This document shows positions 1-42,959 of a stretch of DNA of 64,000 nt, piece after piece. The stretch is taken from NCBI GenBank assembly GCA_030950485.1, contig JAUZRK010000001.1, positions 103,998 to 167,997 of the forward strand, in the 5' to 3' direction. Positions within the stretch are counted from its first letter, which is position 1; the number at the start of each line of letters is the position of its first letter. Below the pieces are notes generated by a model. The model did no database searches, was not told where the DNA came from, and saw nothing but the letters and a program-made list of their open reading frames with translations. Made by a program: the position numbers and the translations under genes. This stretch comes from Candidatus Dojkabacteria bacterium (GTDB lineage: Bacteria; Patescibacteriota; Dojkabacteria; J137).

Positions 1-7
1 TTGATTT

Positions 8-7691: not shown

Positions 7692-7700
7692 TTAATCTTT

Positions 7701-8911
7701 CTACAGATTAACCAGTCTTATTTTCTCACTCCCATAATACTCCAAATCATACTTAGGTGTTTTATAACCAGGCAATCTCCACTCCTCCAATTTCTCTAGA
7801 TCTGCTTTACTAAGCTTAAAATTAACCGCATCAATGTTTTCTTTAAGATGAGAAATATTAGTTGATTTTACAATCGGCAATACCCCTTTATTTACTAAGT
7901 AATTGATTGCAATTTGAGTTGTCGTCATCTTGTATTTATCAGCAAGCTTATTTAGAACTTTGTCTTCTGTTCCTGCAAAGTAACCCATTCTTAATGGCCT
8001 ATATGCTATTACTAAGATATTATTTTTGTTACAAAAATCTACAACACCGCTTTCTTCTGAGGTTCTTACCACTAAATTATAATGAGTCTCATTTGCAACA
8101 ATTCCATGTTTAGTATATTTCAAAGCTTCTTTCATATGATTAACTGAGAAGTTACTTACAGTTATAGATTTGATTTTCCTGAGTCAACTAATCTATCTAA
8201 TTCTTTAAACATTTCTTCAAAACCCATTTCTTTCGCTAGAGCAGGGCTATGGATCATGAACGAATCTAAATAGTGTGTATCTAGAATTTCTAAGTATTCA
8301 TCAACTTGTCTTTCTAATTCTTTAACATCTTTAATATTTCTAGCCTTATGCATATTTGTAAATTTCCCATTTATAAATAGTGATTCTCTAGGATAGTCTT
8401 TAATAGCTTTTGCTGTAGTTTTAATTGATTCACCTTGCGAATAATCTAAACAGAAATCAATATAGTTTAATCCCTGACCAATTGAGTATCTTAAAGCGTC
8501 AATTTCCTGAAATTCGCTAGTATATTTATTTTTAAACATATATCCTCCAACGCCCCAAGTACCTATCCCCATGGCTGATATATCTTGTCCATTCAACTTC
8601 AACCTTGGAAACTTATTATTTGGACCATAGTACGTAGAGCTTCTTTCCCAAATAAAGTCGTACATACTTTTTAAAAGTTCTACAAAGAACTTATTTTTTA
8701 TTGTAATAACAGTGTAATCTCTAAATCCGTTATCTTTTGTTATTATTATTGTATTGTCAAAGATCATCAATTCTACACCAGTAAAAATATTGTGAGGTGG
8801 GACTCGCACTTCTTTAAATAAAGATTCAGAAGTATGTGCAATATCTGACGCACCATAAGGTTTAGCCATAGGAATCAATTGATGTAGGTATACCTTTTTA
8901 TCTAACCTCAT
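7701..8911 (-). pseudogene. aldo/keto reductase disrupted by a 1-nt frameshift in an A-run (ORFs 8162-8911 and 7701-8135)
   Basis: N-part has IGTWGVGG and ends VDSGKSNL*; in the -1 frame the text continues KIKSITVSNFSVNHMKEAL.. (AKR SNFS motif) into the C-part ORF; shift at ggaaaatcaaa (+ coords about 8171-8180). Confidence 0.7.
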
Positions 8912-8980
8912 CTTTAAGTATCCTTTTAAATATTTATAATGAGATTCATCATCATAAACTCTAGATTTTGTATTAATTAT

Positions 8981-9403
8981 TTACCTAACCGGTAGTTCTT
9001 TTGCAGATAGTTGAGCTTCCATAGCATTTCTTTGCGCATCAACCCCTTTCTCAACTTTCATCCATGCTAGATTCTCATTGTTTTCTACAGCAAATCCTTG
9101 AAGATCTTCAACAACCTCTGCGATATTTCTAGCTTTCATATCTGCAGCTTGCTTTTCTTTATTTGCTAAGATATTTAATACTTCAGGGTCAGTTGCTTTA
9201 TAAGTAGAACCTCTTTTCTTTGGAATCTTAACTAGTAAACCTAATTCCTCTAGTTCATCTACTGATCTATATACTGTAGATTTATCATAATTTAGTTTAC
9301 CTGCAAGTTCCGCAGGGTTTTGTTCTCCGTTCTTTAAGAAATCTTCGTAGATTTTTATTTGGTAAATTGTAAGTCCTAGACTTGCTAGAGTAGAATAGTT
9401 CAT
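8981..9403 (-). CDS. TrmB-family winged-helix transcriptional regulator
   Basis: N-terminal HTH LTIYQIKIYEDFLKNGEQNPAELAGKLNYDKSTVYRSVDELEELGLLVK typical of TrmB. Confidence 0.6.
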   Translation of the reverse strand: MNYSTLASLGLTIYQIKIYEDFLKNGEQNPAELAGKLNYDKSTVYRSVDELEELGLLVKIPKKRGSTYKATDPEVLNILANKEKQAADMKARNIAEVVEDLQGFAVENNENLAWMKVEKGVDAQRNAMEAQLSAKELPVR

Positions 9404-9543
9404 AGTTTTTATTTATTACTAGAAGCAGTATAACACCATTAGCTATGGCATAGGTAGTTGCAATACAATACTACTAATTCACCAGTCGCTTAAATTGCAA
9501 CATACCTTACAATAGTGTATAATATGCTATACATAATATACAT

Positions 9544-10344
9544 ATGAGTACTAACTTTGACAAAATTGGAATCAGTTCAGAAGAATATTCTATATATGAA
9601 CTTCTTCTCAAACAACCTACATTAAATATCTCCGAACTCGCAAGAGAGAGCGGAATAACCCGAGTAACGGTTTATTCAGTCCTAGATTCATTACAAGAAA
9701 AAAATTTAATAAAGAGAGTCGATAATAAAAAAACAAAGGTTAAGTACTTTGCACAAAGTCCTGATGTGTTAAATGATTTTATAGTTAATTTCAAAAATGA
9801 TTCAGAAAAAGAGCTTAAAGAGTTAGAGAGTAGAATAAGTACATTAAAAGCTATAGCTGGCGATACAAAAGATCTAGATAGCTCAAACTTAAATGTAATA
9901 AGAGGAGCTGATGCACTAGATATTCTTGATCAGCTAATCTTAGACTGCGGGGAAAGCCTCTGCGGTATTTCATACGATTACCATGTCGACGCATGCTTTG
10001 AGTTCGATATAGACTATAGATTAAAAGATAACAAATACTTAGAACTAGTAATGAAACTTGGAGATAAATTTGCTTTTACTGGAACGAGCGAATCAATCAA
10101 ATCTTGTCAGAAATTAGCAAAAATGAATCCATTTTTAGAAGGTAAATGGGAGCCAAGGTGGATCGATAATAAAAAATTCAAGTTCAATATAAATCTTTAT
10201 TGCTACGGGGACAATACAGCTTTTTCATTAGGATCTAAAAAGCAGAAAGATTATCTAGTTTACATAATTCAAGATAAAAATATAACAGAGTCTATGCGGA
10301 ATTTAAGCCTATATTTATGGGATACAGCTAATTCTATTAACTAA
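9544..10344 (+). CDS. TrmB-family transcriptional regulator (HTH plus C-terminal domain)
   Basis: N-terminal HTH SIYELLLKQPTLNISELARESGITRVTVYSVLDSLQEKNLIKR; divergent from 8981-9403. Confidence 0.6.
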   Translation: MSTNFDKIGISSEEYSIYELLLKQPTLNISELARESGITRVTVYSVLDSLQEKNLIKRVDNKKTKVKYFAQSPDVLNDFIVNFKNDSEKELKELESRISTLKAIAGDTKDLDSSNLNVIRGADALDILDQLILDCGESLCGISYDYHVDACFEFDIDYRLKDNKYLELVMKLGDKFAFTGTSESIKSCQKLAKMNPFLEGKWEPRWIDNKKFKFNINLYCYGDNTAFSLGSKKQKDYLVYIIQDKNITESMRNLSLYLWDTANSIN

Positions 10345-10365
10345 TAAATTTATTATTCAAACATT

Positions 10366-10758
10366 ATGAAATTAAAAAAAATTGATTCAATAGCAATTTG
10401 GTAAGAAAACTGGAGAGAGCTTGCTGATTGGTATAAAGACATTTTTAGCCTAGAAGAAAACATGACTTTAGATCTTGCTGATGATACTGGTACAAATTTA
10501 ATTATTGGATATGGGAGCGTATTATTCTGGATTGGCTATCATGACCAAATTAAAGGCAAAAGCAAAGATCCGTTAAGAGTGATGCCTCCATTTGAAATAG
10601 ATGATGTTTTTGAAACTGAGAAAGAGCTTAAAGAAAAGGGAGTTCAGATTATCGCAAATGCTCAGTTATCTCCTACTAAAGATTTCTATTATTTAACTAT
10701 TCAAGATTTAGATGATAATACTATTAACTTATATAGCTTTAACTTAAAAAATGACTAA
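10366..10758 (+). pseudogene. VOC/glyoxalase-family protein with an in-frame TAA at 10402-10404 (paralog of 56708-57109)
   Basis: ATG 10366: MKLKKIDSIAIW*ENWRELADWYKDIFSLEENMTLD.. aligns with the paralog ..ILFWSENPDELAKSYTDVLELE..; WIGYHDQIKGKSKDPLRVM vs WIGHHDSIKGVTKDPLRRM. Confidence 0.7.
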
Positions 10759-11944
10759 TAATTTAGAGTTATTAAAACTAGAAGTTAACAAACTTGATGA
10801 GCCGATTGAAAAAATCAAGAATCGAATTACAGGAGCAGATGTCTCTAGCTTGATCGAGAAAGAGTTTCTTTCCGAATACAAGCGTTTAATCAATGTAATC
10901 ATTGAGTTCGAAAAACCTACTGGAGAAAAGATAGAGAAAATTCTAAGCTTAGTCAAAAGCATTCAAAATCTTGCTAAAATTGATGTAAGTGAGTTTAAAA
11001 AAAGTGCAAAGGATATTCGAAGTTATATAACTAAAGCGCTTGATGATGTAGCAGCAGGAAACTACAGTATTTGGGCTCCGACTTATAATAAGCTTTTCTT
11101 CTATTCAGAAGTTGAGGCGTGGAAACTTGAAATCAAAACCATTAGAAAATTTGTAGAAAACAATACCGATATCAATAAGTCCTTTGAGATACTTGATGTT
11201 GGAACGGGAACTGGCTTCCCCTCTTTATTACTTTCCAGACTTTATCCAAACTCTCAGGTTAATGCTTTTGATAATTCAGATAAGATGCTTGAAATGGCTC
11301 AGGAGTTTGAAAAAGATGAAATACTTGATTCTAAAGAATTGAGTTTAACAAAGTTGATTCAAGAATATTTAGATCTTAATTACAAAGACTCTAAAAAACC
11401 AAAAAAAAAAAATTTTGTTCATTCACCAATTGTAACCTTAGATAATGAATCCGTCGACATAGGCGTCATGGCAACGGCTATACCTAGTTATACACCTTTT
11501 ACTAAACAGTTAGTTGAAAGTATTTACAGCTCACTTAAACCTGGATCGAGCGCCATGATAAATTTTTCATACATGAGCCTTCCTAGATTTATACTTCTTT
11601 GGAGAGATTATGGATTTACAAAAGCTAGAGAAGAATATAGAAAAAATGCTATTACAGATATTATTTTAGAACCGACAGAAGGAGGAAAGAGTGTTTTTAG
11701 TTTTAAAATTAGTTTTAAAAAATCAATTTGTGAAAAAATTCTTACAGAAACTGGATTTAAAATTAAAAAGAAACATTCTGTTTTTCCATTGTTATATCTA
11801 ATTCTTTCTCTTGGGAAGAAATCTATGCGACAAGATGACAAAAGAATTAGAGCGCCTTATATGTATTTTGAGTTTCCTAAAAATAGACTTCAAAAAGTAT
11901 TGTTTGGAACTTTAACTAAAATTGATTCGTTTCTGTCTAGATGA
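10751..11944 (+). CDS. class I SAM-dependent methyltransferase
   Basis: motif I ILDVGTGTGFPSLLLS. Confidence 0.6.
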   Translation: MTNNLELLKLEVNKLDEPIEKIKNRITGADVSSLIEKEFLSEYKRLINVIIEFEKPTGEKIEKILSLVKSIQNLAKIDVSEFKKSAKDIRSYITKALDDVAAGNYSIWAPTYNKLFFYSEVEAWKLEIKTIRKFVENNTDINKSFEILDVGTGTGFPSLLLSRLYPNSQVNAFDNSDKMLEMAQEFEKDEILDSKELSLTKLIQEYLDLNYKDSKKPKKKNFVHSPIVTLDNESVDIGVMATAIPSYTPFTKQLVESIYSSLKPGSSAMINFSYMSLPRFILLWRDYGFTKAREEYRKNAITDIILEPTEGGKSVFSFKISFKKSICEKILTETGFKIKKKHSVFPLLYLILSLGKKSMRQDDKRIRAPYMYFEFPKNRLQKVLFGTLTKIDSFLSR

Positions 11945-11994
11945 GCTTTATTTACTGCGTATGAGTTACATTATGAGGTAGAAAAACCTAACAT

Positions 11995-12912
11995 TTAAAT
12001 ACTCCCTGGATTCAAAATTACAAACCCAACTAAAATCACAACAATAAAAAATGATTTATGAAGCAAAGTTCCCTTATCAATCCGCTCCGAAATAAGCCTA
12101 GGAAGAAACGTAGTAAGCAAAATACCCGCAATAAACATAAACACTGGATGAGTACCGTTTATTAACCACGCGATACTTAGAGGAGCAGCTAGAGCCGCTG
12201 CGTGAAAAGTTAGCCACGCTACTAAATTTACTACTTCATTAAAAATATTTATACCGATTAGATTTCTATCTGAACTAGAAGAGAAACTAAAAACCTTTTC
12301 TCTAGTTTCTCTAGATATAAACAAAACTCCTAAAGCAAATATCAAATAGCCTATATATTCCCAAAAAGTTGTCTTCCAAAGATCTTCTTCAAGAGCAACA
12401 TATTTAAAAGCTGTTGTATGTGCAGCAGCTAAGAAAGTAGCAAAAAGCATTAGTAGCACTCCTTTAATTGGAGCCCTGAAAGATCTTTCTCTAAAATCTA
12501 TAGCAAAAGATAGAGTTCCAATAAGAATAATTATTCCACCAAAAATCTGACGCGGGCTTAAAGTCTCACCTAAGAATATATAGGCTAAGAAAAATGAATA
12601 TATTGGTAAACTTTGAGTCATTACAATAAGTATTGAAGTTTCTCCATAGCTTAAAGACTTAAAGTAAGGGATTAATTGAAAGATAGAAATCATTCCAAAC
12701 AATATCAGTAGAATTGCGTTTTTAAATTCCACATCAAATGGATCTGCAAAAAATAATAAAAAGGGTAGTCCGAGAGTTGCGGATAAACCCGAAATAACAA
12801 CCAAAGAATTTAATCCCAGTTCTTTATTAAACTTAGTTACTAAAATTTTGTCTAAGTAGGCAACTATCGTCCAGCAAAACGGTGCGAGTAGAGCGTAAAA
12901 TAACCAGGTCAT
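11995..12912 (-). CDS. EamA/DMT-superfamily membrane transporter
   Basis: about 10 predicted TM helices in a two-half duplicated arrangement. Confidence 0.5.
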   Translation of the reverse strand: MTWLFYALLAPFCWTIVAYLDKILVTKFNKELGLNSLVVISGLSATLGLPFLLFFADPFDVEFKNAILLILFGMISIFQLIPYFKSLSYGETSILIVMTQSLPIYSFFLAYIFLGETLSPRQIFGGIIILIGTLSFAIDFRERSFRAPIKGVLLMLFATFLAAAHTTAFKYVALEEDLWKTTFWEYIGYLIFALGVLFISRETREKVFSFSSSSDRNLIGINIFNEVVNLVAWLTFHAAALAAPLSIAWLINGTHPVFMFIAGILLTTFLPRLISERIDKGTLLHKSFFIVVILVGFVILNPGSI

Positions 12913-13126
12913 GTTTAATTTTTATTTTGTTGAATTATAGCGCAGGTAAGTAATATTTACTCAGTTCGATTAAGTAAAATACATACATAAAGCAATATTA
13001 ACATATGTAAAATGGTAAACTAAACTTACTATTAATCAATTTAAAATGGAAGATAAAGAAATTACAAAAAAGAAGAAATCTTGGTGGTAATTAAAATTCT
13101 GCCTACTGATAATACTATTACTTTTA

Positions 13127-13840
13127 ATGATAATTGGAGTTGGAATACTTTATATATACTTTGATAAAGATACTGTCTGCGAAGAAGTTGAGAGAGTAGA
13201 AATCCCTTTACTTTCAGAGCTTCCAAATGAAGTTAACATCAAAATTAACGAAGGAGAGTCTCTTTACTATGAAGTTGATTTAGATTCTGATAGCTCAGTA
13301 AAATATTCATTAATTATTTATTCTGATAAAGCTAGCGTACAAGATAATGTAATTTTATGGCAAAAGCCACCTACTGGAGAATACGTAATCTCTGTAGAAG
13401 CATCTACTTCTGAAGATCTGGATTTATTTAAAATTAATCTTACTGTAAAAGAGGCTAGTTCAAATAATAAAACAGAAGAAGGTATTACAGAGGAAGCTAT
13501 ACCTGGTCCCTTAGTTGATCCAGTACCAGTAAAATTACCAGAACAACAGGCAGAAGTTATTGAAGAACCAGTTGTTGTAACAGATAATTGTACTCCTGAA
13601 CTTACAAGGTCTTACTGGGAAAGCAAATATCCGGGAACTATATGGTATACAGCTAATACTTCTATTACCCCAACAATGATTAGTACTACAGGCGCAGCTG
13701 GTGGATGTCATGTAAAAATAGATACTCCAGAAGGATGTTTGTTTTCAGGTTGGAAAGTGAATAGCAATACTGTTAGCTTAGCTAATTCTACAAAAACAGC
13801 TGTTAGCTCAGCATGCCCAGGCGTTACTATAGTTGAATAG
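13127..13840 (+). CDS. hypothetical secreted protein
   Basis: N-terminal hydrophobic segment, Cys-rich C-terminus. Confidence 0.4.
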   Translation: MIIGVGILYIYFDKDTVCEEVERVEIPLLSELPNEVNIKINEGESLYYEVDLDSDSSVKYSLIIYSDKASVQDNVILWQKPPTGEYVISVEASTSEDLDLFKINLTVKEASSNNKTEEGITEEAIPGPLVDPVPVKLPEQQAEVIEEPVVVTDNCTPELTRSYWESKYPGTIWYTANTSITPTMISTTGAAGGCHVKIDTPEGCLFSGWKVNSNTVSLANSTKTAVSSACPGVTIVE

Positions 13841-13865
13841 AACTTATTAATGGGAAGTGATTAAG

Positions 13866-15593
13866 CTAGTGCTTACTCGCCTCCCACAATCTTTGATAAA
13901 CTTCATTATTCTTAATCAGCTCATCGTGATGTCCAGTACCAATAATCTCCCCTTTATCCATTACAACAATCCTATCAAAAAATGGTCCAGAGGAAATACG
14001 ATGAGTAATTGCAATCATCGCTGTGCTATGAAGTTCAGATAATGATTTGTAAATATTCTTCTCCGTAACTGTATCTAAACTTGCAGTAGCTTCATCTAAA
14101 ATTAGAATCTCCGGCTTAGTAACCAGAGCTCTAGCAATACAAATTCTTTGTGTTTCACCACCGGAGAGTTGTTTCCCTTTACTTCCTATAAGCTGATGGA
14201 TTCCGTCTTCGTACATTGAAATAAAATTCATTGCATCAGAGAGCTCCAACGCATCAACAACTTCTTTATCTGAAAGATCAATGTCACTAACTAATTGCAG
14301 ATTATCCTTAATGCTCCTACTTAATAGCTCATTTGCTTGAGGTACTACTTTTATATTCCCAAGTAATGAATCATTCTTAATATCTAATACATTTAAATCA
14401 TTTATATTTATCACTCCATCGTCTGGAAGATATAATTTCATTAAAAGCTTTGTTAGGGTAGATTTACCAGACCCAGAAGCTCCAACTATAGCGAGTTTCT
14501 CATTCTTATATATGTCTAGATTTATATTATTAAGTATTTTAGTACCTTCTAAATATGAAAAGTTAATTTTATTAAAGTTAACTTTTGTCCATTAACTGGG
14601 AAAATCTTTATCTCCTTCAGGAATCTTCCTCCCTATTTTAAAGATAGAAGATATTCTTTGTAATCCAGTTACGTTCTCTACTAAGTTTTCATAATCAGTC
14701 CAAACATTTGATGCTCTTGAGGTAATCTTTGTATAGTAAGCATATAATGTTACAGCAACATCAATATTCATATTCCCCTCAATAGCCATATATGCAACAA
14801 AAGCAAGTACTATAACTTCTGAAAGATCCAGCATTAAACTTTGAGATGCAGATGTAATTCTCTCAAACCTCCTTAATACTCTAGTACTATCAATGACTTT
14901 TTCATAAGCACTATCTAGATTTTTAAGTAACTTTGAAGTGATATTTAAAAACCTTACAGTTTTAATTTTTGAAGTAAACTCAAAAAGACTAGAATAGTTA
15001 TTTTCTTCCTCTTTTTGTAGTTCTAAATTAAGTTCTTGGTATTTTCTTGCATTTCTATTTACTGATAGAAAAAAGAAGATTAATATTATTATCGACCAAA
15101 TCCCAACTCTAACATCGAATAGCATTAATAAAATTATTGAGAAAAATAATTCTGCTACTCTTTGAAAAGTTGCAGTAAACATAATTTTCAAAATCATCCT
15201 AACTGCTTTAGATCCCAAGGATATTCTTTCTAGATAGCCTCCCTGAGCTTCATTTTCATGAAAGTCATAATCTAAAGTAAATAAATACTGTAGTGCAAGA
15301 ATTCTAGATCTATTTCTAATATATTCTGAAAGTACTTTTGTTTTATAAGCAACTATATTTCTTATTACTGTGACCAATACTAAGCTAATAGCTGTCAAAG
15401 CTATCATCTGGTAAATATTATCAAAATTCTCATTTGCAAAACTTCCAACAATCTTACCGTATAAAAAAGGTGGGATCATTGCAATTAAAGACACTACTAT
15501 AGTAACGCCAAAGTAAAACAATAATTTCCTTTTATATCCTTCTGTAAAAAAGGACATGTCTTTTAAAACATTTTTAATAGGGTAGTGCTGCAT
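13866..15593 (-). pseudogene. ABC exporter (TMD-NBD fusion, MsbA-like) interrupted by an in-frame TAA at 14592-14594
   Basis: TMD ORF (14592-15593) and NBD ORF (13866-14441) are in one frame. The 150 nt between them read WTKVNFNKINFSYLEGTKILNNINLDIYKNEKLAIVGASGSGKSTLTKLL (Walker A). LSGGETQRICIARAL signature and DEATASLD Walker B lie downstream. Confidence 0.8.
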
Positions 15594-15603
15594 TTATTTT
15601 TAA

Positions 15604-16095
15604 CTAAATATATTCATTTAAATCATTAATCTCTATACTATGTTTGATTATCTCATCTTGAAAGCTCTTATAGAAATTAAAATTCAAGCTATCATTCTCA
15701 AACTCAAGGTATTTCCCAGATTCGTCATAGTTTAACTTAAGCACAGTCTTGTTATCAATATTCCAGAAATCTATTTTTGGTAAATCTAATTGATTAAATT
15801 CGCTATCCATTATAATTTTTATATCATCTCCGTATTTCTTCGCTACTTTAAAAACTTCGATTTCAAATTTTGTATAGTCATTAATTGGGAGTGTAACTAA
15901 TCTAACTCTTTTTGTAGAAACTCCACCTTTATTCTTTGATTTTAAGAAATCGAACCATTCAGCATTATCAGTCATATCTACTTTACCAGTCTTAAGATAT
16001 TTATCTAAACTTTCTTTATCTTCAGATAAGTATTGTAAGCTCTCAAATCTAAAAAGAGATTTCTGTGAATTTTTTAAATATTCAAATAGTTCCAT
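15604..16095 (-). CDS. hypothetical protein
   Basis: 163-aa ORF, no motif. Confidence 0.4.
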   Translation of the reverse strand: MELFEYLKNSQKSLFRFESLQYLSEDKESLDKYLKTGKVDMTDNAEWFDFLKSKNKGGVSTKRVRLVTLPINDYTKFEIEVFKVAKKYGDDIKIIMDSEFNQLDLPKIDFWNIDNKTVLKLNYDESGKYLEFENDSLNFNFYKSFQDEIIKHSIEINDLNEYI

Positions 16096-16117
16096 TATCT
16101 AACTTTAATTTAATATT

Positions 16118-17194
16118 CTATAAATATTCATCCATTCCCCTTTTCTTTAACTCATCTAAGATTTTCTTAATATTTCCCACCCTATCTTTAGTTGTAACTA
16201 AAAGAGCATCTTCAGTATCAACAATAACAATATCCTTAAGCCCTAAAGTTGCAATCAACTTCTTTTTCTTTCCCTTTATGAGAACATCTTTAGAATCAAT
16301 ATTAATAATATCTCCATCTAAATAATTCCCATCATCAGCGGAAAAGAACTCAGAAATACTTCCCCAAGCTCCAATATCTTTCCATTTAAACGGAGTCAAA
16401 ATAACATAACCTTCCTTCATGGAATGACTAATAACTTCTCCTGTCATTCCTGGCTCCATTTCTGAATAAACTTTATCTGTTAACTCATCTTCATTCTCCA
16501 ATCCAAATGTAGCCTCAATCTTCATTAAATCTTCATACCAATTAGGTTTATATTTCTTATAATCATTTAATAGCAAGCTTGGATACCAGCACGTGTGGTT
16601 ACAGTGTGTAGAAACTCTATATTTTTCTACAAGTTCTTTAGTTTGCTTATAATCTCCGAGCCTATTTATAAATCTATTTACTTTAAAAACCTCAATATTA
16701 TTTTCATTCATAATCGAATCGCCGAGTTCCATATAATCACTTCCCATATCCGGATAAATCGCTTTCTGACCAGCAGTTTTAAATTTCTTATCTCTTCTTA
16801 CAAGTTTTTCTGCAAGAGCTATCATATCTAAAAATCTTTCTTCAGGTACCCTAAAATCATCAGATTGAACAAGCATAAATGGTTCGTCGTCTGTAAGATG
16901 CATCAATTTCAGAAAAGCAAAACCTTCTCCTGGACCTCTATTTTTCTGATAATCAGGTTCATAAATAATATTTTCCTTTGGGATCTCGTTAGCTTGTTCA
17001 TCAATAAAGTTTTTATATCTTTTTTTAGTTGATATAAAAATATCAGCTGGTGAATAAGCTTTAAGTAAAGTTTTAATTTGATATTGGAATAATGATTCGT
17101 TACCTATTATTTTCTAAAACTGCTTTGGAGCTGAGACTCTACTGTAAGGCCAGAGTTTGGTTCCTTGTCCTTCCGCTACTATTAATAATTTCAT
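16118..17194 (-). pseudogene. mannose-1-phosphate guanylyltransferase-like sugar nucleotidyltransferase with an in-frame TAG at 17114-17116
   Basis: Upstream of ORF 16118-16906, the same frame reads MKLLIVAEGQGTKLWPYSRVSAPKQF*KIIGNESLFQYQIKTLLKAY.. (GxGTRLWP nucleotidyl-transferase motif). The C-terminus has the ManC-like KDIGAWGS. Confidence 0.75.
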
Positions 17195-17254
17195 CTAGTA
17201 AGTGTATAAATGAATTAAGTTTTCTTATAGAATACTATAAGTACGCCATTTTAC

Positions 17255-18457
17255 ATGAAAAACAAAGAATCATTACAAAGATTAGAAATTGCCCAGCAGC
17301 AAGTGCTTTTTCGAGTACTTTATCAAATCGGATCGCTAATATTTTTTCCTTATTATTATATACGCTTATATAAAACCACTGGATCTCTTTCGATAATATT
17401 CTTAGAATCATTAGTGTTTTTTATATCACTTTGGGCAGCATTTACAATTTTCACATTTATAATTGATAAGAATGGCTACCTTAAATCGTATAGACTCTCT
17501 TTTATAATTCAAGCAATAGCATTTGGAGCAGTCTTTATATTTCTTGACCAAATTGAAGAGCTATATATTATTTTCGCCATATTAGTTGGTTTTGGAAGAG
17601 GTACATTCTGGCCAATTTATCATGGAGCTAGCCTTAAGGAATTCCAAGGAATAAGAAGAGGGAAGCTTATTGATATAAATGAATCTATAATACAAATTCT
17701 ATCTATTCTTCTTCCGATTATGGCAGGAGCTGTAATAGGTTTTAGCAATCAAGGGTTAAGAATAATTATTTTAATTTATATTTCAATAATATTGACGGCT
17801 GTTCTATATCCTTGGAAGTACAATAAAAAGCCTAGAAATAAAATTCGCTCATCTGAAATAACAGCGATATTTAAAAAGAAGCATTTTAAAAGATATTTTT
17901 GGATAATGTTCTTTGAAGCTGGAGTATCTAGGTTTATGGGATCGTTATTTTTGGTTATCCCATATATTTTAATTGGAAATGAATTCGGAGTAGGAGGATT
18001 AGCAACTTTAACAGGTATTGTTGCTGCGGTTGGTTCTTTCTCAGAAAGAAATCTAGATATAAAATATAAAACCCCAATAGCTTATTTCGTTTATATTCTC
18101 TCTGGAATAGGAACATTACTATTAGGAATAATCTGGACAGTTCCAATGCTAGCTATCAGAAGTTTAATAGTAAATTTAAGATCATCACTTGGAAGTACTC
18201 TTTATGCAGAATTGAACTACAAAGTAAAAGAAAAGCTACTTGGTGACTTTAAAGATGAATCTGCGCTCGAAATGAATTTAATTGATGAAACTATTGCAAT
18301 GCTTGGTAGAGTTTTTGCTTTAATACTCTCATATTTTTTCATAACTGAAGTTAAAGATATTGAGATCGTCTTAAAAAGTGGCTTAATAATATTTGCTTTC
18401 TACCCTCTATTATCATTCACTCTTAGCAAAAAGCTTAACGATAAATTAAAAAAGTAG
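17255..18457 (+). CDS. MFS-like multi-pass membrane transporter
   Basis: about 12 hydrophobic helices. Confidence 0.5.
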   Translation: MKNKESLQRLEIAQQQVLFRVLYQIGSLIFFPYYYIRLYKTTGSLSIIFLESLVFFISLWAAFTIFTFIIDKNGYLKSYRLSFIIQAIAFGAVFIFLDQIEELYIIFAILVGFGRGTFWPIYHGASLKEFQGIRRGKLIDINESIIQILSILLPIMAGAVIGFSNQGLRIIILIYISIILTAVLYPWKYNKKPRNKIRSSEITAIFKKKHFKRYFWIMFFEAGVSRFMGSLFLVIPYILIGNEFGVGGLATLTGIVAAVGSFSERNLDIKYKTPIAYFVYILSGIGTLLLGIIWTVPMLAIRSLIVNLRSSLGSTLYAELNYKVKEKLLGDFKDESALEMNLIDETIAMLGRVFALILSYFFITEVKDIEIVLKSGLIIFAFYPLLSFTLSKKLNDKLKK

Positions 18458-18458
18458 A

Positions 18459-18818
18459 TTAAACTCCGGCAGCGGTTTTAGCTGCATCTAATGAAATTGA
18501 AGCGCATTTTAATCTTGAAGAAGTAAGCTCTATACCTATAAGCTCTAAAAGACTGTCTAGATTAAATTTAGAAAGTTCACTAATTTTCATACCAATAATC
18601 TTTTCATAAAGTAGGGAAGCTGAACCTATACAAATAGAACAACCTTCTCCATTGAAAGAAACATCTACAATTACGTCATTTTTTATATCTAGCTGAATTG
18701 TAACTCTATCTCCACAAGATAAATTCTTAGAAGTAGCCTTGTTTGTATATTCGATTTGTTTATCGAAATTCTGGGGATTTTTATAATGATCTAGGAGTTG
18801 TTCTTGGTATTCATTCAT
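18459..18818 (-). CDS. SufU/IscU-type Fe-S cluster scaffold
   Basis: LSCGDRVTIQL and GEGCSICIGSASLL conserved Cys ligand motifs. Confidence 0.7.
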   Translation of the reverse strand: MNEYQEQLLDHYKNPQNFDKQIEYTNKATSKNLSCGDRVTIQLDIKNDVIVDVSFNGEGCSICIGSASLLYEKIIGMKISELSKFNLDSLLELIGIELTSSRLKCASISLDAAKTAAGV

Positions 18819-18913
18819 AATAAATTATACTATAAGTAATTGTGTTTATATTAGTTTATTACTAGTATTTTATTCAAAAATGTTAAATAATATATCAGAT
18901 AACTCAATCCCAA

Positions 18914-20206
18914 GTGAACGACAAAAATAATAGTGAATTAAAAGTAATAGGAATCTCTGGAACTAGAGGTAAAACTATAGTCGCCCATATACTTTATGAT
19001 CTTCTATACTCTTCTGGTATAAGAGTTTCTTTATTATCAACAAACGGGATAGTTATAAATGGAGTTAGTCAAAATGATGCAGCAAATTCTTACAATATTA
19101 ATAAGAAAACATTAAAGAACTTTTTCAGAGATTCAAATAAAGAAGAATGTCAGTATGCAATAGTTGAAATTTCTTCACAAAAAATTAAAGATGGAACATT
19201 TAATGGAGTTGAACTTTCTCATGCAATACTTACAAATATCCATGAAGATTCGCTAGAGATTCATGGAACACTAAATGAATATATCCATACAAAAATCGAA
19301 TTTGTAAAACTTATTAAAGATGGAGGTGCATTAATAGTTGACTCAAGTGATAAAAATTCAAAGAGTATAATAAGAGAAAATAAAGATAAGATTGAAAATA
19401 ATATCTATGTAATTAATGCAAATAGAAGCATCATTGCTAGAGAAGAGCACTTTATAGATGGTACAAGATTCTATATTGACGAGCTCGGAGAGGTTATTAC
19501 TAGGCTTTCTGGTGACTTTAACATCGGCAATATTATTCTTGCAGTAATGTTAGCGAGATTTTTAACAAATCCAAAAACTTTAATACCTAGTCTTAGAAAA
19601 GCAGAGCCGATTTTAGGTAGGTTACACTTGTATAGAAAAACACCAGCTAATATTTTTGTAGATTATGCAAAGAAACCTGGAACACTTAAGGCATCTCTTG
19701 AGCATCTAACCAAAGTAAAAAGTCCAAAATCACGAATAATTAGTGTGTTCGGAGCTTCAGGGGACAAAGATAAACTAGGAAGAGAATCTGGAAATGTTTT
19801 AAAAGACTTATCGGATTATGTAATATTAACCTCCCAAGATCCTAATTTTGAAGATGTGTCAAAAATAAATTCAGAAATACATACCTCTTCTGGTGATTAT
19901 GGTAGTGTCTTAATAGAGAGAATTGGATCGGAACAAGAGTACGAACTAATTAAATATGATAATTTGGCCAATAAAATTGAAAGAGTATATTTAACAGGAG
20001 ACGTTCCGTTTATTGCTTTTGACGAAAATGCATATACAAGTAGGCTAAATGCAATAGACTTAGCGTTAAAAATATCTAGACCTGGAGATATTATTTATAT
20101 AACAGGAAAAGGTCACGAAAAGTCTTCAATTTATAACAATATTGAATATGAGTGGTCTGATTATGAGGCTATTAATCTTTTATTAAGCCAATATGGATAC
20201 CAATAA
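18914..20206 (+). CDS. Mur ligase family protein (MurE/MurF-like)
   Basis: GISGTRGKT P-loop of Mur ligases; C-terminal ligase domain. Confidence 0.65.
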   Translation: MNDKNNSELKVIGISGTRGKTIVAHILYDLLYSSGIRVSLLSTNGIVINGVSQNDAANSYNINKKTLKNFFRDSNKEECQYAIVEISSQKIKDGTFNGVELSHAILTNIHEDSLEIHGTLNEYIHTKIEFVKLIKDGGALIVDSSDKNSKSIIRENKDKIENNIYVINANRSIIAREEHFIDGTRFYIDELGEVITRLSGDFNIGNIILAVMLARFLTNPKTLIPSLRKAEPILGRLHLYRKTPANIFVDYAKKPGTLKASLEHLTKVKSPKSRIISVFGASGDKDKLGRESGNVLKDLSDYVILTSQDPNFEDVSKINSEIHTSSGDYGSVLIERIGSEQEYELIKYDNLANKIERVYLTGDVPFIAFDENAYTSRLNAIDLALKISRPGDIIYITGKGHEKSSIYNNIEYEWSDYEAINLLLSQYGYQ

Positions 20207-23774: not shown

Positions 23775-24350
23775 CTATGAAGCTTGATCCTCAGCTACCA
23801 TTTTAAAAATCACAGGTTTAAAGTCTGCTTTAATCTGGTACATTTGATTACCAAGTGCTTGTGAAATTTTATCTGAGTCTTCTGATCTCGCTTTCTCAAG
23901 CTCCCTTGCAATATCATATAAGAAATAAAGCCCAAGGAAATCTGGGATTTTCGGATCTTGCTCTAGACGTTTTCTTTCGTCTTCAATTATTTTATCTAAT
24001 TCAATATTTTCATCCCGGTTAACATTTTCTATCGCATTTGCAATTCTTTTAAAGCTATCCTGATATGCATTTATTTCATATGGGAATAATCTAGGATCTC
24101 TATTCTCTATAAATATTGAAATTCTATTAACTCGCCAATCATATCCCTGATCATGTAGATATTCTTCTCCTTCATTGTCAGATATGATGTTATTTGTACC
24201 TCTTTTAGCCTGCCTCCAGTTACTGTAAATATTTATTAATAAATTACGAAGAGGAAGTGAATTCGGATTAATAGCAGGATCCCCATCAACTCCACCAATA
24301 ATTTGAACTATACTTCTAACTGTTGTGGCTGATTTTAATTCTTTAATCAC
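23775..24350 (-). CDS. hypothetical protein (reading frame stays open upstream to about 24590 without an ATG; may be longer or disrupted)
   Basis: ORF from the track; the upstream extension translates cleanly. Confidence 0.35.
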   Translation of the reverse strand: MIKELKSATTVRSIVQIIGGVDGDPAINPNSLPLRNLLINIYSNWRQAKRGTNNIISDNEGEEYLHDQGYDWRVNRISIFIENRDPRLFPYEINAYQDSFKRIANAIENVNRDENIELDKIIEDERKRLEQDPKIPDFLGLYFLYDIARELEKARSEDSDKISQALGNQMYQIKADFKPVIFKMVAEDQAS

Positions 24351-24971
24351 ATCGCCTAGGCTCTCTATCTGTTCACTTGTAAATCCACTGTCTATAATTA
24401 CCTTTGCAATCTCAGACCACTGCTTATTTCGATTACTCCAATCTTCTCTAATAGCTATAACATAATTTCTTATAAGTACGGGGTTATGAATTAATGCGTC
24501 ATTAATCTCAGCTATTAGTCCATCAATGTCATCTTCCAGTATTTTTTTCTGTCCAGGCTCGAAATTAGATAATTTAGCTCTCTACACTTTCATTACTTTG
24601 ACAATTTTACCCACTATAGTCTCAGCCTCTGTTGGTTTTCATCATCACCAGTACCTATTCCTGCTATTAGTCCTAAGACATATGCAGGGACTTTACCTTG
24701 ACGAGATTCCTTCTCTCCAGAGCTTGGATCTCTAATGTCAATTAACCCCAACTTATAGTTTTTAACATTATCACGGAACCACTCATCATGAGCTTCGTCC
24801 TCAATTCTATTAAATAAATCCTTCTCTTGTGTTTCTATGTTAATTCCACTAACTATTGCTTCTGCTCCCATACCGAATTATAGTACTAAATCTTCATTTA
24901 TAGAAATCGTTTTCTATAGATTCAGGTTATACTCTAAGTGATAATCGGCTATAAACTTTTATAACTCATTA

Positions 24972-25677
24972 ATGGAACTACACTATATTCAAGCAGCAAT
25001 ACTTTTAGAACTAGGCCAGATAAAAGGCCTAACTTTTAGTGGATTCAAAATACCGACTGAGCTTAATATAGAAGCAGATAAATTTAACTACCATCTTAAA
25101 ACGCTAGTAAAACTAAAACTAGTAAATAAAAAAAGAAGGAGAGTACTCATTAAGTTTTGAAGGTAAGAAGATTGTAAGTAATCTAGATTTTATAAATAAA
25201 CAAAAAGAGGAAACACCTAAAATAAGTATTATGGCTAGGATATTCAGAGAGAAAAAAGGTATTAAGCAAATTTTAGTTAGCCAACGACTTAAACATCCTT
25301 ACTTAAACGCACTCGGTTTAGTTACTGGAAAAGTCAAAGTTGGAGAAAAATTTGAAGACGAGATGATTCGAGAATGTATTGAAGAAACGGGGCTTGTTCC
25401 TACTAAGTTTGAAATGGTAGGAGTAGCTAGATGGATTGATTATGATTCGAAGAAGACATTGCTACACGATGCTACTTTTATAATTTTCGATGTTTATGAA
25501 ACTGATGGAGTATTAATAGAGCAGAGTGATGAATCTAAAAATTTCTGGGTAGATTATTCAGAATTAAAAAATATGGACAATTTATTGCCTACTTTAAAAG
25601 AGATGGCTAAGGGGAAGGAGCTCCAGAGTAGAACAATGGTTTTTGAGGAAAGAGTAGCTGTTTTGGATAATTTTTAG
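24972..25677 (+). pseudogene. winged-helix + Nudix hydrolase fusion, split by a +1 frameshift in an A7 run (25128-25134)
   Basis: ORF1 ends ..LVNKKRRRVLIKF*. Dropping one A gives LVNKKEGEYSLSFEGKKIVSNLDFINKQKEETPKISIMARIF.., which joins ORF 25231-25677. Canonical Nudix box GKVKVGEKFEDEMIRECIEETGL. Confidence 0.65.
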
Positions 25678-25689
25678 GGGTTAGTTTGA

Positions 25690-25860
25690 AACGTTTCGGG
25701 ACACGGTTCAACCTTGACCCAGCCAGGGTCACAACCTAGATCATCCGCAAGTGTACATACACTGGCGCATGGTTTGCCATTTTTATGCAGGAGCATGGTT
25801 GTACCATGCTCCGATACGTTTTTATGACAAAGCTAAAAGTTCATGAGAAAGTATATTTAC
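25690..25860. ncRNA. GC-rich structured island in convergent intergenic space (candidate small RNA or 3' element)
   Basis: perfect 9-bp hairpin ggagcatgg/ttgta/ccatgctcc and hairpin ttgaccc/agcca/gggtcaa; GC content well above surroundings. Confidence 0.3.
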
Positions 25861-25869: not shown

Positions 25870-26325
25870 CTAAATCGACTCAGTCTTTACAAGCTTCATA
25901 TCATCATCAAAAGTATATTTAGCCTCATAGAAGTCTGGGGAGCTAAGAATTATTGGAGCATACACTTTATCTGCTTGAGGTAAAGCTATTTCGTCTAACT
26001 TAACGATTGATATCCATTGAAGCTTATGACCTTCTACGTCTTTTGTTGTCTCTCCTTTGAAATCCTCTATAAGGTAAATGAATAAATGCCATTGAATATC
26101 TTTTGATACTTCAGTTACTAACCCTTTTAATTTAGTATCAGCTATCTCTAGTCCCGTAGTTAAACAGTTTCTTCGTACATTTTCGAAAGTTGATTCACTA
26201 TCTTTTACTAGATCACCCAGAGGAATATAGATTTCTCCATAGTGTAAATGAGGCTTTTCAACTAATAAAATCTCATTTTTATTATTTCGAATAAATATTA
26301 CAGTTTCCGGTCTTATCTCTCTCAT
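25870..26325 (-). CDS. Nudix-fold protein with degenerate Nudix box
   Basis: VIFIRNNKNEILLVEK.. and ENVRRNCLTTGLEI resemble the Nudix fold but lack the EE pair. Confidence 0.4.
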   Translation of the reverse strand: MREIRPETVIFIRNNKNEILLVEKPHLHYGEIYIPLGDLVKDSESTFENVRRNCLTTGLEIADTKLKGLVTEVSKDIQWHLFIYLIEDFKGETTKDVEGHKLQWISIVKLDEIALPQADKVYAPIILSSPDFYEAKYTFDDDMKLVKTESI

Positions 26326-36520: not shown

Positions 36521-37234
36521 ATGGAAATACAAAAATCAATAAATAAAGTTTTTATAGTAACAGCAGTCTATGTTGTTGGAATTTCTGTATTTTTAGCAAA
36601 TGTAACTTCTACAAAAGATAATAATAATGATTTCATTTTTGCAAATGATTCAATTTCTAAAAATAATTTAGATGGTACAAATGAAGAGATAGTCAAAGAA
36701 GAAATCGCTAACCAAGAAGATGTCATTGAAGATGTATTAACAAATGCAGTTGTAGACATAGAGTCTTTAAAGGATTCAAGTTTAAAATTAGAAAAATGCG
36801 GACTTTCATTTAGTAATATTACAAATGAACTAGATTCCAAGATACTAGTTACTCCATATAGAAATTTCTTTGGCAACAGATTAGAAGGCGCAAGAATCTT
36901 CCAAACAAAATCGGACGGAATAGAACTTCAGAGAGAGATTCTAGTTGAATGTGTAAAGACTAAAGATGATCTTGTAAGCTTTTATAAAAAAGTAATCTTA
37001 GAAATTAATAATGGTCAAAGTTATAGCTTTGAAAGCTTAAGTCCTGACACTAGATTCATTCTTACTGATCACATTGCGCTAAAATATACATTAGCTTCTA
37101 ATTCAAATACACCTGAATATTTAATAGTTTTTAAAAATAAAGCTACAGGAATAGGATATGTAATGAGAGTAATAGATAACTCTGATGATAAGAAAATTAT
37201 TGATAATATTATTTCAAGTATTGAGTTTATATAA
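36521..37234 (+). CDS. hypothetical secreted protein
   Basis: N-terminal TM/signal segment. Confidence 0.4.
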   Translation: MEIQKSINKVFIVTAVYVVGISVFLANVTSTKDNNNDFIFANDSISKNNLDGTNEEIVKEEIANQEDVIEDVLTNAVVDIESLKDSSLKLEKCGLSFSNITNELDSKILVTPYRNFFGNRLEGARIFQTKSDGIELQREILVECVKTKDDLVSFYKKVILEINNGQSYSFESLSPDTRFILTDHIALKYTLASNSNTPEYLIVFKNKATGIGYVMRVIDNSDDKKIIDNIISSIEFI

Positions 37235-38570
37235 TGAAGAAGTTTCCGAAAAACTTTCTATGGGGTTCAGCAACTGCAGCTTATCAAGTTGAGAGCAATA
37301 TAGAGAATAATTGGACCGCGTATATTCAGACAAGTGCACAACATAAAGCTAAAAATGCAAAAGAAGATCTTAAAAAACAAACTAACCTTTACGGTGAACT
37401 TAATAAAGTTACTCTAGATAGAATTGAAGATGATATTGATGATGTAGCTAATTATATTCCCAATGTATCAATTTCTCATCAAAAAAATTATAAACAAGAT
37501 ATAGCGCTAGCTAAAAGTTTAAATCATAATTCGTATCGTTTCTCACTTGAATGGGCAAAGATTGAACCTACAGAGGGGAATTACAACCAAGATGCAATAG
37601 AGCATTATCGTAATGTAATTAAAGAGCTTAGAGAAAATGATATAGAGCCTTTAGTTACTTTAGTACATTTCACTCTACCAAAATGGTTTCAAGATAAGGG
37701 AGCGTTTGAAAATAAGGATAATATAAAGTACTACTTAAAATATGTAAAAGAGTAGTTGGAGAGTATAGTGATGTTAATTATTGGATTACTATTAATGAAC
37801 CATTAATTTATACAATGGCGTCCTATCTTGCAGGGGTTTTCCCACCTAATAAATCAGTAGGTCTCTACGGCGCTTTCAAAGTCATTAAGAATCTAGCAAG
37901 AGCACATATTGAAGCTTACAAAGAAATCAAAAGTATTGATAATACAAAGAAGGTCGGAATTTCTAAAAATACAGTGTCTTCTAAAGTAGATAAGAGGTCT
38001 TTTATATTCTGGCCTCTTACTAAATTCCTAGATTATACTTTCAATACTTATTTTGTTAGTAAAACTAAAAAGCATTTAGTTTTCTTAGGTCTTAACTATT
38101 ATTATCTAGTTTACGGTAGGTTTAGTAGATTTATTAACTTAATTAAAATCTTATTCTTTGGAAGCGAGCCCGACCCATTCTCGAGCAGGCATTTAGAAGA
38201 TCCTGATATTATTGGTACTTCGGACATGGGTTGGTATTTGTATCCTAAAGGAATGTATGAAAGAGTAATGTTTTATCATAAAAAATATAAGTTACCTATT
38301 ATGATTACGGAACACGGACTCGCAGACAAGGAGGATCGAATACGATTGGAATATACTAAACAATCTCTTGAATATTTACATCAAGCTATAACTGATGGAG
38401 CTGAGGTTTTAGGATATATGCATTGGTCTTTGTTAGATAATTTTGAATGGGATAAAGGATATTGGCCTAAGTTTGGGTTAGTTGAGGTAGATATAAAAAC
38501 AGGAGAGAGAAGAGTTAGAGAGAGCGCTAAGAAAATTGGAGAAATTTATAAAAATAACTACATAGAATAG
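37234..38570 (+). pseudogene. GH1 beta-glucosidase split by a 1-nt deletion near 37749-37753
   Basis: ORF1 has YRFSLEWAKIEP and ends YYLKYVKE*. The +1 frame continues KRVVGEYSDVNYWITINEP (acid/base NEP), joining ORF 37815-38570, which has the nucleophile ITEHG. Confidence 0.7.
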
Positions 38571-39265: not shown

Positions 39266-39886
39266 ATGAAACTAAACATTGCATTAAAAATAAATGATTC
39301 AGATATAGAAAAACTCATTTCTTTTACTGACGGTATTACAGCTAAATATAACCCTGTTTTTAAAATAAACGATACTGACAGAATCCCTCATCTTACTTTA
39401 TTTCAAGGTAACTTTAATGATTCAGAGATAGATGCTTTAAATGATTCTATAAAAAGACTTGCTAGTAATTATTCTCCGTTTAAACTTTACGGACTTCGGC
39501 TTTTAAGTGAACATTTAACTCCTACTTCTATTTGGTATCAATTTGCTAATAGAATTAAATTAATAGCCCTTCATTTTGAAACATTAAGTTTAGTAAGCGA
39601 GTTTGATATTTCTTTAGAAGATAAATTTAAAAAGGGTAGTGAGTTTTTAGATAAGCTTAATCCAATTCAGAAAGAGCAGATTGAAAGATTTAAAAATCCA
39701 TATCTTGGGTATGTTTATGATCCACATATTACTCTTTGTAGATTAGAAAATAATGAAGATGTTCAAAATATAGTAAATGAATTTACACCTGATCTTTGGG
39801 AAATTAGAATTGAGGGTATTTCTATTTTTGAGGGTGGAGAGCACGGGACTTGTAAGAATGTCATTAATGAATTTACTTTTACGTGA
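39266..39886 (+). CDS. 2H phosphoesterase (LigT/ThpR-like RNA 2',3'-cyclic phosphodiesterase)
   Basis: two H-x-T-x motifs, PHLTLF and PHITLC. Confidence 0.65.
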   Translation: MKLNIALKINDSDIEKLISFTDGITAKYNPVFKINDTDRIPHLTLFQGNFNDSEIDALNDSIKRLASNYSPFKLYGLRLLSEHLTPTSIWYQFANRIKLIALHFETLSLVSEFDISLEDKFKKGSEFLDKLNPIQKEQIERFKNPYLGYVYDPHITLCRLENNEDVQNIVNEFTPDLWEIRIEGISIFEGGEHGTCKNVINEFTFT

Positions 39887-40529
39887 TTAAATTCTGGAGT
39901 AGAGTAATAGCTGGGTTTAGGTAACAACTTTGAATTTTTGCTTTTATTATATTATCTGGTATTTCAATCAATAAATCGTCATCGCCAGCAATATCTTTCC
40001 ATTTCTTTAAATCATTCAATTCAACCCATATATATCCATCTCCCTCTGTTAAAACTGGCTGAAAACTATTTCTTACCTGAATTGAATAAAAGTGAAACTT
40101 AATATCATGTCATCCGACTTTCTTACCTAGTTTTGAATTTGCAAATTCGCCTCTTAGAATCCCCAACTCCACATTTGTTTCATCCAACCTATATATTTCT
40201 CCATTCTCTGATTTAATTTTTCTTCTTAGTGTAGTAGCTAGATTAGGTTCTGTACTTTCCATTCTTCCTCCTGGAAAAGCAAAGAAAAGTTGGCCATCAG
40301 CTCCCTTTTCTATAATCATTAATAATTTGTTACTCTCGTTAATGATCATAGCTTTAGCAGCTAACCAACAGTCTTCTATTGGATCAACAACTAGCTCTTG
40401 TTTCTTTCCACTTCGATATTCAACGATTTCAAATGTCATGCCATTTTCTATATGCATCGCTCTAATTTCTTGATTTGTTGTATACTCATGAGTACTTTCG
40501 TTATTTTCTTGTTTATCAGGTTTATCCAA
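39879..40529 (-). pseudogene. Nudix hydrolase with an in-frame TGA at 40110-40112
   Basis: ORF 40110-40529 ends ..GKKVG*. The same frame continues HDIKFHFYSIQVRNSFQPVLTEGDGYIWVELNDLKKWKDIAGDDDLLIEIPDNII.. to a TAA at 39879-39881. Nudix-box-like FPGGRMESTEPNLATTLRRKIKSENGE. Confidence 0.65.
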
Positions 40530-42622: not shown

Positions 42623-42952
42623 TTAATCAATTTCTACAGTAATTCTATATGGCCTTCCAATAGCATCTAGAACCTTAGCTAAATATTCAACTGAAATATT
42701 CTGCTGACCTCTTTCTAGCCTAGAAATTGATGCAGGCTTTGTATTAATTCTTTCAGCTACTTCTTTTTGAGTTAAACCTTCTGCGATTCTCGCTTTTTCA
42801 ACTTTCTCTGCTATGTCTAAGCCGTATTTTTTTCTAAGCTCCAACCTGGTCTCTTCTGCTTCTTTATAAAATTTTTCACGATCTTTAAGATCGGGATAGT
42901 ATTTTCTTATTAGTTGCTCATGGCTTATTAATTTTGATTCATCTATTTTCAT
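42623..42952 (-). CDS. XRE-family HTH antitoxin (HigA-like)
   Basis: HTH AEGLTQKEVAERINTKPASISRLERGQQNISVEYLAKV. Confidence 0.6.
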   Translation of the reverse strand: MKIDESKLISHEQLIRKYYPDLKDREKFYKEAEETRLELRKKYGLDIAEKVEKARIAEGLTQKEVAERINTKPASISRLERGQQNISVEYLAKVLDAIGRPYRITVEID

Positions 42953-42959
42953 AGATCTG

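Follow-up and report, generated by a model that had tools for sequence, protein, structure and literature searches.

Rescue of frameshifted genes by transcriptional slippage has been documented at A tracts of 9–12 nt in insect endosymbionts (PMC3017870; PMC5009743). The genes concerned, in Buchnera aphidicola and Blochmannia, are otherwise intact and carry a single indel in an A run within an AT-rich, reduced genome; some of these frameshifts are retained across populations or species, and mixed pools of transcripts have been measured. We analyzed a locus with a similar appearance in a 64,000 nt stretch of DNA (the window; GenBank assembly GCA_030950485.1, contig JAUZRK010000001.1, positions 103,998 to 167,997 of the forward strand). 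The window belongs to the metagenome-assembled genome (MAG) of an uncultured Candidatus Dojkabacteria bacterium, a member of the Candidate Phyla Radiation (CPR) with a GC content of 32%, and its proteins, encoded on a contig of 179,567 bp, are deposited at NCBI as MDQ69848xx (locus tag prefix Q9M91). The gene in question encodes a winged helix-turn-helix (wHTH) domain followed by a Nudix domain and is interrupted at a run of seven A residues (A7). It differs from the endosymbiont cases in that the run measures 7 nt rather than 9–12 nt, the length change required to restore the frame (−1 or +2) is the disfavored one, and the frameshift is represented only by two assemblies that are ~99.9% identical.

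Several further systems bear on the interpretation of this locus. Transcriptional insertions in A/T runs rise exponentially with run length, and homopolymer deletions are rare (PMC5574713). Slippage in A/T runs consists overwhelmingly of +1 insertions, and no error restoring a reading frame was found among Buchnera transcripts (PMC5574713). Indel bypass at runs of 4–8 nt was shown in Escherichia coli for a selected, plasmid-borne enzyme (PMC3812077). Long-read (Nanopore-type) consensus errors at homopolymers fragment gene calls (PMC9262707). At the protein level, the NrtR/AraR regulators (PDB 3gz8, 5bs6, and 2fml) also have both a Nudix and a winged-helix DNA-binding domain. Our preferred reading, to which we assign a probability of about one half, is that the A7 run represents a real, recent, and unprogrammed one-base frameshift in the DNA of this Dojkabacteria population.

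One ancestral wHTH–Nudix gene split at an A7 run

The run occupies positions 25128–25134 of the forward strand, is exactly seven nucleotides long, and is preceded by a T and followed by a G. The upstream open reading frame (ORF1, 24972–25160, forward strand, frame 0, TGA stop at 25158–25160) encodes a 62 aa product listed at NCBI as hypothetical protein MDQ6984804.1. This product comprises the N-terminal part of a winged helix (helices 1–3 and the first wing strand), followed by eight out-of-frame residues, RRRVLIKF. ORF2 (25231–25677, forward strand) lies in frame +1 relative to ORF1 and encodes a Nudix domain of 148 aa (MDQ6984805.1, “NUDIX domain-containing protein”). Frame +1 is preceded by a TAA at 25123–25125 and is open from 25126 on. 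Both frames are thus open over 32 nt (25126–25157, forward strand), an interval that contains the A run and within which any +1 or −2 shift joins ORF1 and ORF2. The coding stretch at 25135–25230 (forward strand, frame +1) belongs to no annotated ORF and encodes the second wing strand, a helix at residues 62–69, and the linker.

An earlier, sequence-only reading had proposed that A7 splits the gene and that a run of six would fuse the two ORFs, and both statements held: removal of one A (A6) yielded a 234 aa fusion with the junction LVNKKEGEYSLSFEGKKIV, exactly as that reading had given it. Addition of two A residues (A9), an option absent from that reading, also restored the frame, giving 235 aa with LVNKKKEGEY at the junction. 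A run of eight led to early stops, and the frame was restored only by a change of −1 or +2. The trans-frame junction peptide of the fusion is LVNKKEGEYSLSFEGK or LVNKKKEGEYSLSFEGK; the C-terminal peptide of ORF1 ends in LVNKKRRRVLIKF.

ORF1 and ORF2 are the halves of a single ancestral wHTH–Nudix gene. When the A6 fusion was searched against Pfam, NUDIX (PF00293) matched residues 85–203 above the gathering score (E = 9e-12), and two wHTH models, DUF7347 and HTH_45, matched residues 9–76, both just under their gathering cut-offs. These wHTH matches cross the position of the shift, near residue 54. Besides ORF2 itself, a database search yielded two intact homologues of 236 aa (53% and 31% identity), each covering both halves. 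An exhaustive, profile-free family search started from the closest homologue yielded 276 representative clusters at E ≤ 1e-10, nearly all of them 225–240 aa long and matched over near full length. With this uncharacterized family (P0002, P0003, and P0007–P0040), the reconstruction is colinear end to end at 27–53% identity, the window copy being split by one base; membership of the ~235 aa family was recovered only once one A had been removed or two had been added.

In an alignment of 32 sequences (the reconstruction and 31 homologues), all 13 family-invariant residues were kept in the reconstruction, including Q7, H41, K53, Y58, G64, K65, P109, G119, R133, E137, E138, and W192. Three of these (Y58, G64, and K65) are encoded after the shift and before the ATG of ORF2, in the stretch outside any annotated ORF, and another three (R133, E137, and E138) belong to the Nudix box. 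The spacing between K53 and Y58 is four or five residues in the family. We considered family length as a discriminator between A6 and A9 and found it indecisive, as wing turns of four and five residues are both common and the two repairs are equally acceptable. The Nudix box itself (GKVKVGEKFEDEMIRECIEETGL, 25327–25395, forward strand), read directly from the sequence, is an exact fit to GX5EX7REUXEEXGU. Because the box is fully canonical, catalysis is likely to be retained in this protein.

A structural model of the reconstruction, built with AlphaFold2 on the family alignment (pLDDT 91.8, pTM 0.83), comprised a three-helix wHTH, a wing hairpin (strands 51–54 and 57–60), and a Nudix fold (alpha/beta/alpha). 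The position of the shift coincides with the tip of the wing beta-hairpin. With its box, profile match, and fold, the reconstruction belongs to the Nudix superfamily, and the structural neighbors of the model were Nudix domains only: the NrtR Nudix domain 3gz8, MutT, and MTH1. The Nudix domains of NrtR/AraR ranked first both by structure (Foldseek E = 1.9e-10 to 3gz8) and by sequence (phmmer E = 2e-4 to 5bs6), but only the Nudix domain aligned, at 18–24% identity. NrtR has an N-terminal Nudix domain and a C-terminal wHTH; this order is reversed in the window protein, which therefore falls outside the NrtR family. Among the structural and sequence matches, we found no solved structure with the order wHTH then Nudix.

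Sister assembly, homologues, and recoding signals

We compared the window to a sister assembly (GCA_030949735.1, contig JAUZSD010000008.1), which encodes the same ORF1 and ORF2 products as MDQ70210xx (ORF2 being MDQ7021009). The sister contig was obtained in four pieces covering the whole window, and 38.5 kb were compared base by base; within positions 1–19404 of the window, the comparison was made by eye at the sites of an aldo/keto reductase (AKR) gene and of an A12 run only. The two assemblies were 99.8–99.9% identical and had the same A7. Differences between them were mostly 1 nt changes of homopolymer length, in both directions, and the rate of discordance climbed with run length, from 0.009% (1 nt) through 0.07% (3 nt), 0.58% (4 nt), 1.6% (5 nt), and 3.5% (6 nt) to 8.3% (7 nt). 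The longest run was A12 in the window versus A11 in the sister assembly. At six discordant sites, ORF intactness allowed a decision; the window was intact and the sister assembly broken at all six, and therefore no private homopolymer error was demonstrable in the window assembly. At position 49971, the sister assembly under-called an A7 by 2 nt. The sister assembly carried an intact version of none of the lesions found in the window. All 29 runs of at least seven A/T inside listed intact ORFs, among them the A12 and an A9, left those ORFs unbroken.

Two loci stood out in the comparison of the assemblies. The A12 run (11401–11412), the longest homopolymer in the window, lies in frame in an intact 397 aa methyltransferase-like ORF; with A11, the gene is split in the sister assembly. 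For slippage or phase variation, this run is a more promising candidate than A7. A patch of ~300 bp in a YbaK/tRNA_edit-like gene (62776–63089) showed dense differences between the assemblies, against 99.9% identity elsewhere in the compared sequence: ~15 substitutions of A (window) versus G (sister) and many indels, the ORF being intact in the window and broken in the sister. A recombined allele, low coverage of this region, or systematic error may lie behind the patch.

The frameshift was shared solely by the two assemblies, and no relatives of the locus intermediate between the sister assembly and the homologue at 53% amino acid identity were found. This closest homologue (L002) reads aac-aaa-agc-tca-gaa at the equivalent codons, with neither a long run nor a shift, and a shift was required in none of the 31 aligned homologues. 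Two orthologues were disrupted, each in its own way. On a JGI metagenome contig (L006, 1010–1720), the AAG codon for K49 has become an in-frame TAG, five codons upstream of where the frame shifts in the window; the sequence after the TAG is still conserved, and the gene lies upstream of ftsZ, as does the closest homologue. On an ENA contig with a MEGAHIT-style k141 name (L007, 690–1303), a 1 nt deletion is found at about residue 30, and the C-terminus is truncated too. Both are broken full-length genes rather than contig-edge fragments, and in both the Nudix ORF persists behind the break. The wHTH–Nudix gene is thus often caught disrupted in nature, by lesions that cannot be put down to homopolymer miscalls. 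As the two were picked as Nudix-only matches lacking the N-terminus, the pair allows no inference on a bias towards breaks in the wHTH half.

Signals of recoding were sought around the run. The 121 nt surrounding it folded no better than shuffled sequences (z = −0.5), and RNA structure near the run was not found. The zero-frame codon after AAA-AAA-A is AGA, the commonest Arg codon in the window (404 of 587 Arg codons; 27 per 1000). Shine–Dalgarno (SD)-like cores were detected upstream of one of 48 genes (one of 41 on recheck). Compared with programmed +1 frameshifting of the prfB or antizyme kind, the site has no slow or stop codon in the A-site, no stimulator, and no conservation. On the preferred reading, the A7 site is not one of programmed or selected recoding. 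Given the 4–8 nt runs bypassed in E. coli (PMC3812077), a trace of leaky bypass product from the A7 gene may by analogy be conceivable; no sign of selection for such bypass was seen at the run.

Re-initiation via the AAGGAG just after the run was considered and rejected: no in-frame start lies in range, and the motif has no plausible role because SD motifs are hardly used by this genome. Within the 30 nt upstream of the 41–48 starts examined, SD-like cores were fewer than a rough estimate of the number expected by chance, and many genes have a TATAAT-like box only 8–25 nt upstream of the ATG. Together, these two observations suggest that translation starts independently of SD motifs, on mRNAs with very short leaders or none.

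Origin of the frameshift

Further lesions were sought by a coding-potential scan of the whole window, inspection of junctions, and Pfam searches on reconstructions. At least 13 disrupting lesions were found in nine of ~68 genes, all of them common to the sister assembly: three A4 runs needing A5, two A7 runs, one (AG)n indel, other indels, and five in-frame stops. The lesions were clustered: five pairs of them share a gene, more than random placement predicts (P = 0.026). The nine genes hit are all accessory, and the genes for IleRS, RecJ, Mur ligase, MurB, SufS, TsaD, ThyA, and DHFR are intact. Because of the non-homopolymer lesions (the five in-frame stops and the (AG)n indel) and the clustering, real gene decay is ongoing in this genome. 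If the lesions are real, the load of interrupted genes in the window is unusual for a small CPR genome.

Under the preferred reading of a real frameshift, a very recent one-base expansion from A6 to A7 in the population's DNA would have interrupted a dispensable wHTH–Nudix gene at the wing tip of its DNA-binding domain. The products would be a wingless 62 aa wHTH fragment and, at most, a stand-alone 148 aa Nudix protein if the internal ATG at 25231 is used. Such use is possible; the sequence upstream of this ATG is A-rich and lacks an SD core, like that of other genes in the window. The lesion would then be one among many ordinary ones (nonsense changes, homopolymer and dinucleotide-repeat indels) in the accessory genes of a reduced genome. 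The split anatomy, the single-gene ancestry, the absence of other decay, the presence of the lesion in both assemblies, the other lesions of the window, and the disrupted orthologues are observed; that the extra base is present in the DNA, that it is recent, and how the halves are expressed is what we infer. In favor of this reading are the identical A7 in both assemblies, the sharing of all 13 lesions, the lack of any demonstrable private homopolymer error in the window, the A12 resolved in frame there, the non-homopolymer lesions and multi-lesion pseudogenes around the site, the restriction of lesions to accessory genes, the independently broken orthologues, and the lack of any recoding signal found. 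Several observations weigh against it. The gene is otherwise pristine, with its 13 invariant residues and Nudix box, as it would also look were the break an artefact. It does not resemble a decayed pseudogene, having one lesion and its conserved residues, as opposed to three lesions in a ComM-like gene, two in the neighboring gene at 23775–24877, and two in a remnant near 58.9 kb. The two assemblies come from one accession series (MDQ6984805 and MDQ7021009), so that a common sequencing platform, with its systematic errors, may lie behind both, and the differences between them are dominated by run-length-dependent homopolymer indels. Finally, no independent copy of the locus was found in GTDB genomes (related-locus and gapped pattern search) or in JGI metagenomes (gapped pattern and Nudix-box 29-mer).

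A substantial, if tentative, possibility is that the true run is A6 or A9, the gene an intact one of ~234–235 aa, and A7 a systematic miscall made in both MAGs during assembly or base calling. The climb of discordance from 0.58% at 4-mers to 8.3% at 7-mers is the signature of long-read errors, which produce the same run-length-dependent differences of ±1 that break ORFs between the window and its sister (PMC9262707), and the wHTH–Nudix gene is otherwise without decay. Each of the five homopolymer-linked lesions would fit under-calling, three with A4 for A5 and two with A7 for A9. At 49971, an A7 was under-called by 2 nt in the sister assembly. A9 gives NKKKEGEY, which aligns without gaps to the closest homologue, wing turns of four and five residues both occurring in the family. 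Homopolymer errors can moreover be systematic and hence shared. Set against this, the case differs from typical long-read errors (PMC9262707) in that the assemblies agree at A7, where an identical coincident miscall would have a probability well under 1% per run if errors were independent, and in that the window assembly had no private error at the six decidable sites and left all 29 long A/T runs in intact ORFs unbroken. Nor can the nonsense codons and the genes with multiple lesions be homopolymer miscalls.

Rescue of the gene rather than its death had been suggested earlier, on the grounds that poly(A)-associated shifts recur in this genome. Under such rescue, a fraction of transcripts with A6 or A9 would encode the full-length protein at a functionally meaningful level, which we regard as improbable. 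The run does lie in an AT-rich reduced genome within a gene that is otherwise undecayed, bypass at 4–8 nt runs is on record for the selected E. coli enzyme (PMC3812077), and poly(A) rescue is established in endosymbionts (PMC3017870; PMC5009743). However, seven A residues fall short of the 9–12 of demonstrated rescue, and slippage frequency falls exponentially as runs shorten. The dominant +1 product would be A8, with its early stops, while restoration calls for the rare deletion or a +2 change (PMC5574713). There is no upstream hairpin or other structure (z = −0.5), the nearest homologue has neither run nor shift, and the MAG pair differs mainly by homopolymer length. The supposed recurrence also dissolved on inspection: the AKR lesion and two further ones lie in A4 runs, and the others are stop codons or sit in a doubly broken remnant. 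The five in-frame stops and the multi-lesion genes are beyond any slippage at A runs. Programmed or leaky +1 ribosomal frameshifting, in which tRNA-Lys would slip from AAA to the overlapping AAA on AAA-AAA-A and continue with GAA-GGA-GAG, appears very improbable. It would offer perfect re-pairing in the P-site and a product identical to the A6 protein (...LVNKKEGEYSL...), but AGA, in the A-site, is used more than any other Arg codon and thus not slow, no SD-like stimulator lies upstream and no structure downstream, and the site is conserved in none of the 31 aligned homologues. A broader proposal, for which we see little chance, is that this Dojkabacteria organism, whether free-living or episymbiotic, tolerates ~12% interrupted genes, with single-lesion genes (wHTH–Nudix at A7, AKR and a GH1 gene at A4) remaining partly functional via transcriptional or translational infidelity at short A runs. 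On a related reading, the wHTH half may be recurrently severed, as in the window and the two broken orthologues, with selection keeping a stand-alone Nudix enzyme.

Other lesions, surrounding sequence, and meaning

The two lesions that the sequence-only reading had set beside A7 survived in part. In the AKR gene (7701–8911, reverse strand), the break is real; the run is just 4 nt long (A4 in the sense direction, T4 on the forward strand), lies at 8174–8177 rather than 8175–8178, and needs an extra base. With one extra A, the gene encodes a 403 aa protein with a single Aldo_ket_red match across the break (model positions 2–288 of 291). At the N-terminus (8580–8911, reverse strand), the reductase domain is preceded by ~110 additional residues that match nothing in Pfam. 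The remnant at 58595–58940 (reverse strand, ATG at 58929) does contain an A7 at 58916–58922 (T7 on the forward strand), located 6 nt past the ATG (MSEKNF, then a stop). Repair of this run extends the frame to just 53 codons, and the frame breaks again near 58790; no Pfam match was found anywhere in the remnant. Because of this second break and the missing Pfam match, the remnant is dead whatever the length of its run.

Among the remaining disrupted genes, the divergent neighbor of the wHTH–Nudix gene (23775–24877, reverse strand) has an in-frame TAG at 24582–24584 and an A4 at 24636–24639 that needs one A. A GH1 beta-glucosidase gene (37234–38570, forward strand) needs one extra A in the A4 at 37746–37749. 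The ComM/Mg-chelatase-like pseudogene (43764–45284, reverse strand) combines an indel near 44640, a TGA at 44584–44586, and an (AG)4 at 44045–44052 that needs to be (AG)5. In an ABC exporter gene (13866–15593, reverse strand), an in-frame TAA at 14592–14594 falls between the transmembrane and nucleotide-binding domains, and Walker A lies upstream of the first available start codon. A degenerate Nudix gene (39879–40529, reverse strand) has an in-frame TGA inside the domain (40110–40112), and a TraB/GumN-like gene (60959–61816) is split by an in-frame TGA at 61250–61252. UGA reassignment was considered for the three in-frame TGAs and rejected, since TGA is the normal stop of six other ORFs and code 11 leaves most genes intact. 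The small ORFs at 42623–43705, also suspected of being a broken gene, proved to be three normal ones (HTH_3, Gp49, and 23S_rRNA_IVP).

Four genes with a Nudix fold occur within 27 kb: the split gene (25231–25677), a convergent and degenerate one (25870–26325), the TGA-interrupted, degenerate one at 39879–40529, and 51178–52182, which encodes a DcpS_C/NUDIX-like protein of 334 aa. Near them lie two CYTH genes, a LigT-like gene, and a nucleotide-metabolism cluster (thyA, DHFR, and dCMP deaminase). Between the two convergent Nudix genes, a GC-rich island (25678–25835, 46% GC versus a background of 32%) is predicted to form a very stable multi-branch fold on either strand (−57 and −58 kcal/mol; z = −5.1 and −4.8). 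The island had no significant Rfam match (best E = 0.78, far under the gathering score) and could be an unclassified non-coding RNA or a bidirectional terminator. Over the whole window and its GC-rich gaps, Rfam gave no match, whether at gathering score or with E ≤ 0.1. A 57 nt direct repeat (84% identity) immediately upstream of thyA surrounds a GC-richer, ORF-free insert of ~280 nt (53322–53714), and a 43 nt near-tandem repeat (81%) lies at 55035–55126 in the ORF-free gap 54673–55176; neither matched Rfam. A short tandem repeat, CTAGTCT in three to four copies (59105–59135), was found in the ORF-free stretch between the remnant and a flavodoxin gene.

Whichever explanation of the A7 run is correct, the locus raises no new question of recoding, as slippage rescue is already well documented and the site is without its hallmarks. 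If the run is an artefact, the lesson is one of caution: ~8% of 7 nt A/T runs differ in this MAG pair, and where recoding is inferred from one homopolymer in data of this kind, the reads themselves must confirm it. If the proposal of infidelity at short runs were true, the “rescue by polymerase infidelity” of endosymbionts would reach into Patescibacteria and down to far shorter tracts. A real lesion would show gene loss, or domain fission, in progress in a reduced CPR genome, with a ligand-binding or catalytic Nudix domain being severed from its DNA-binding domain.

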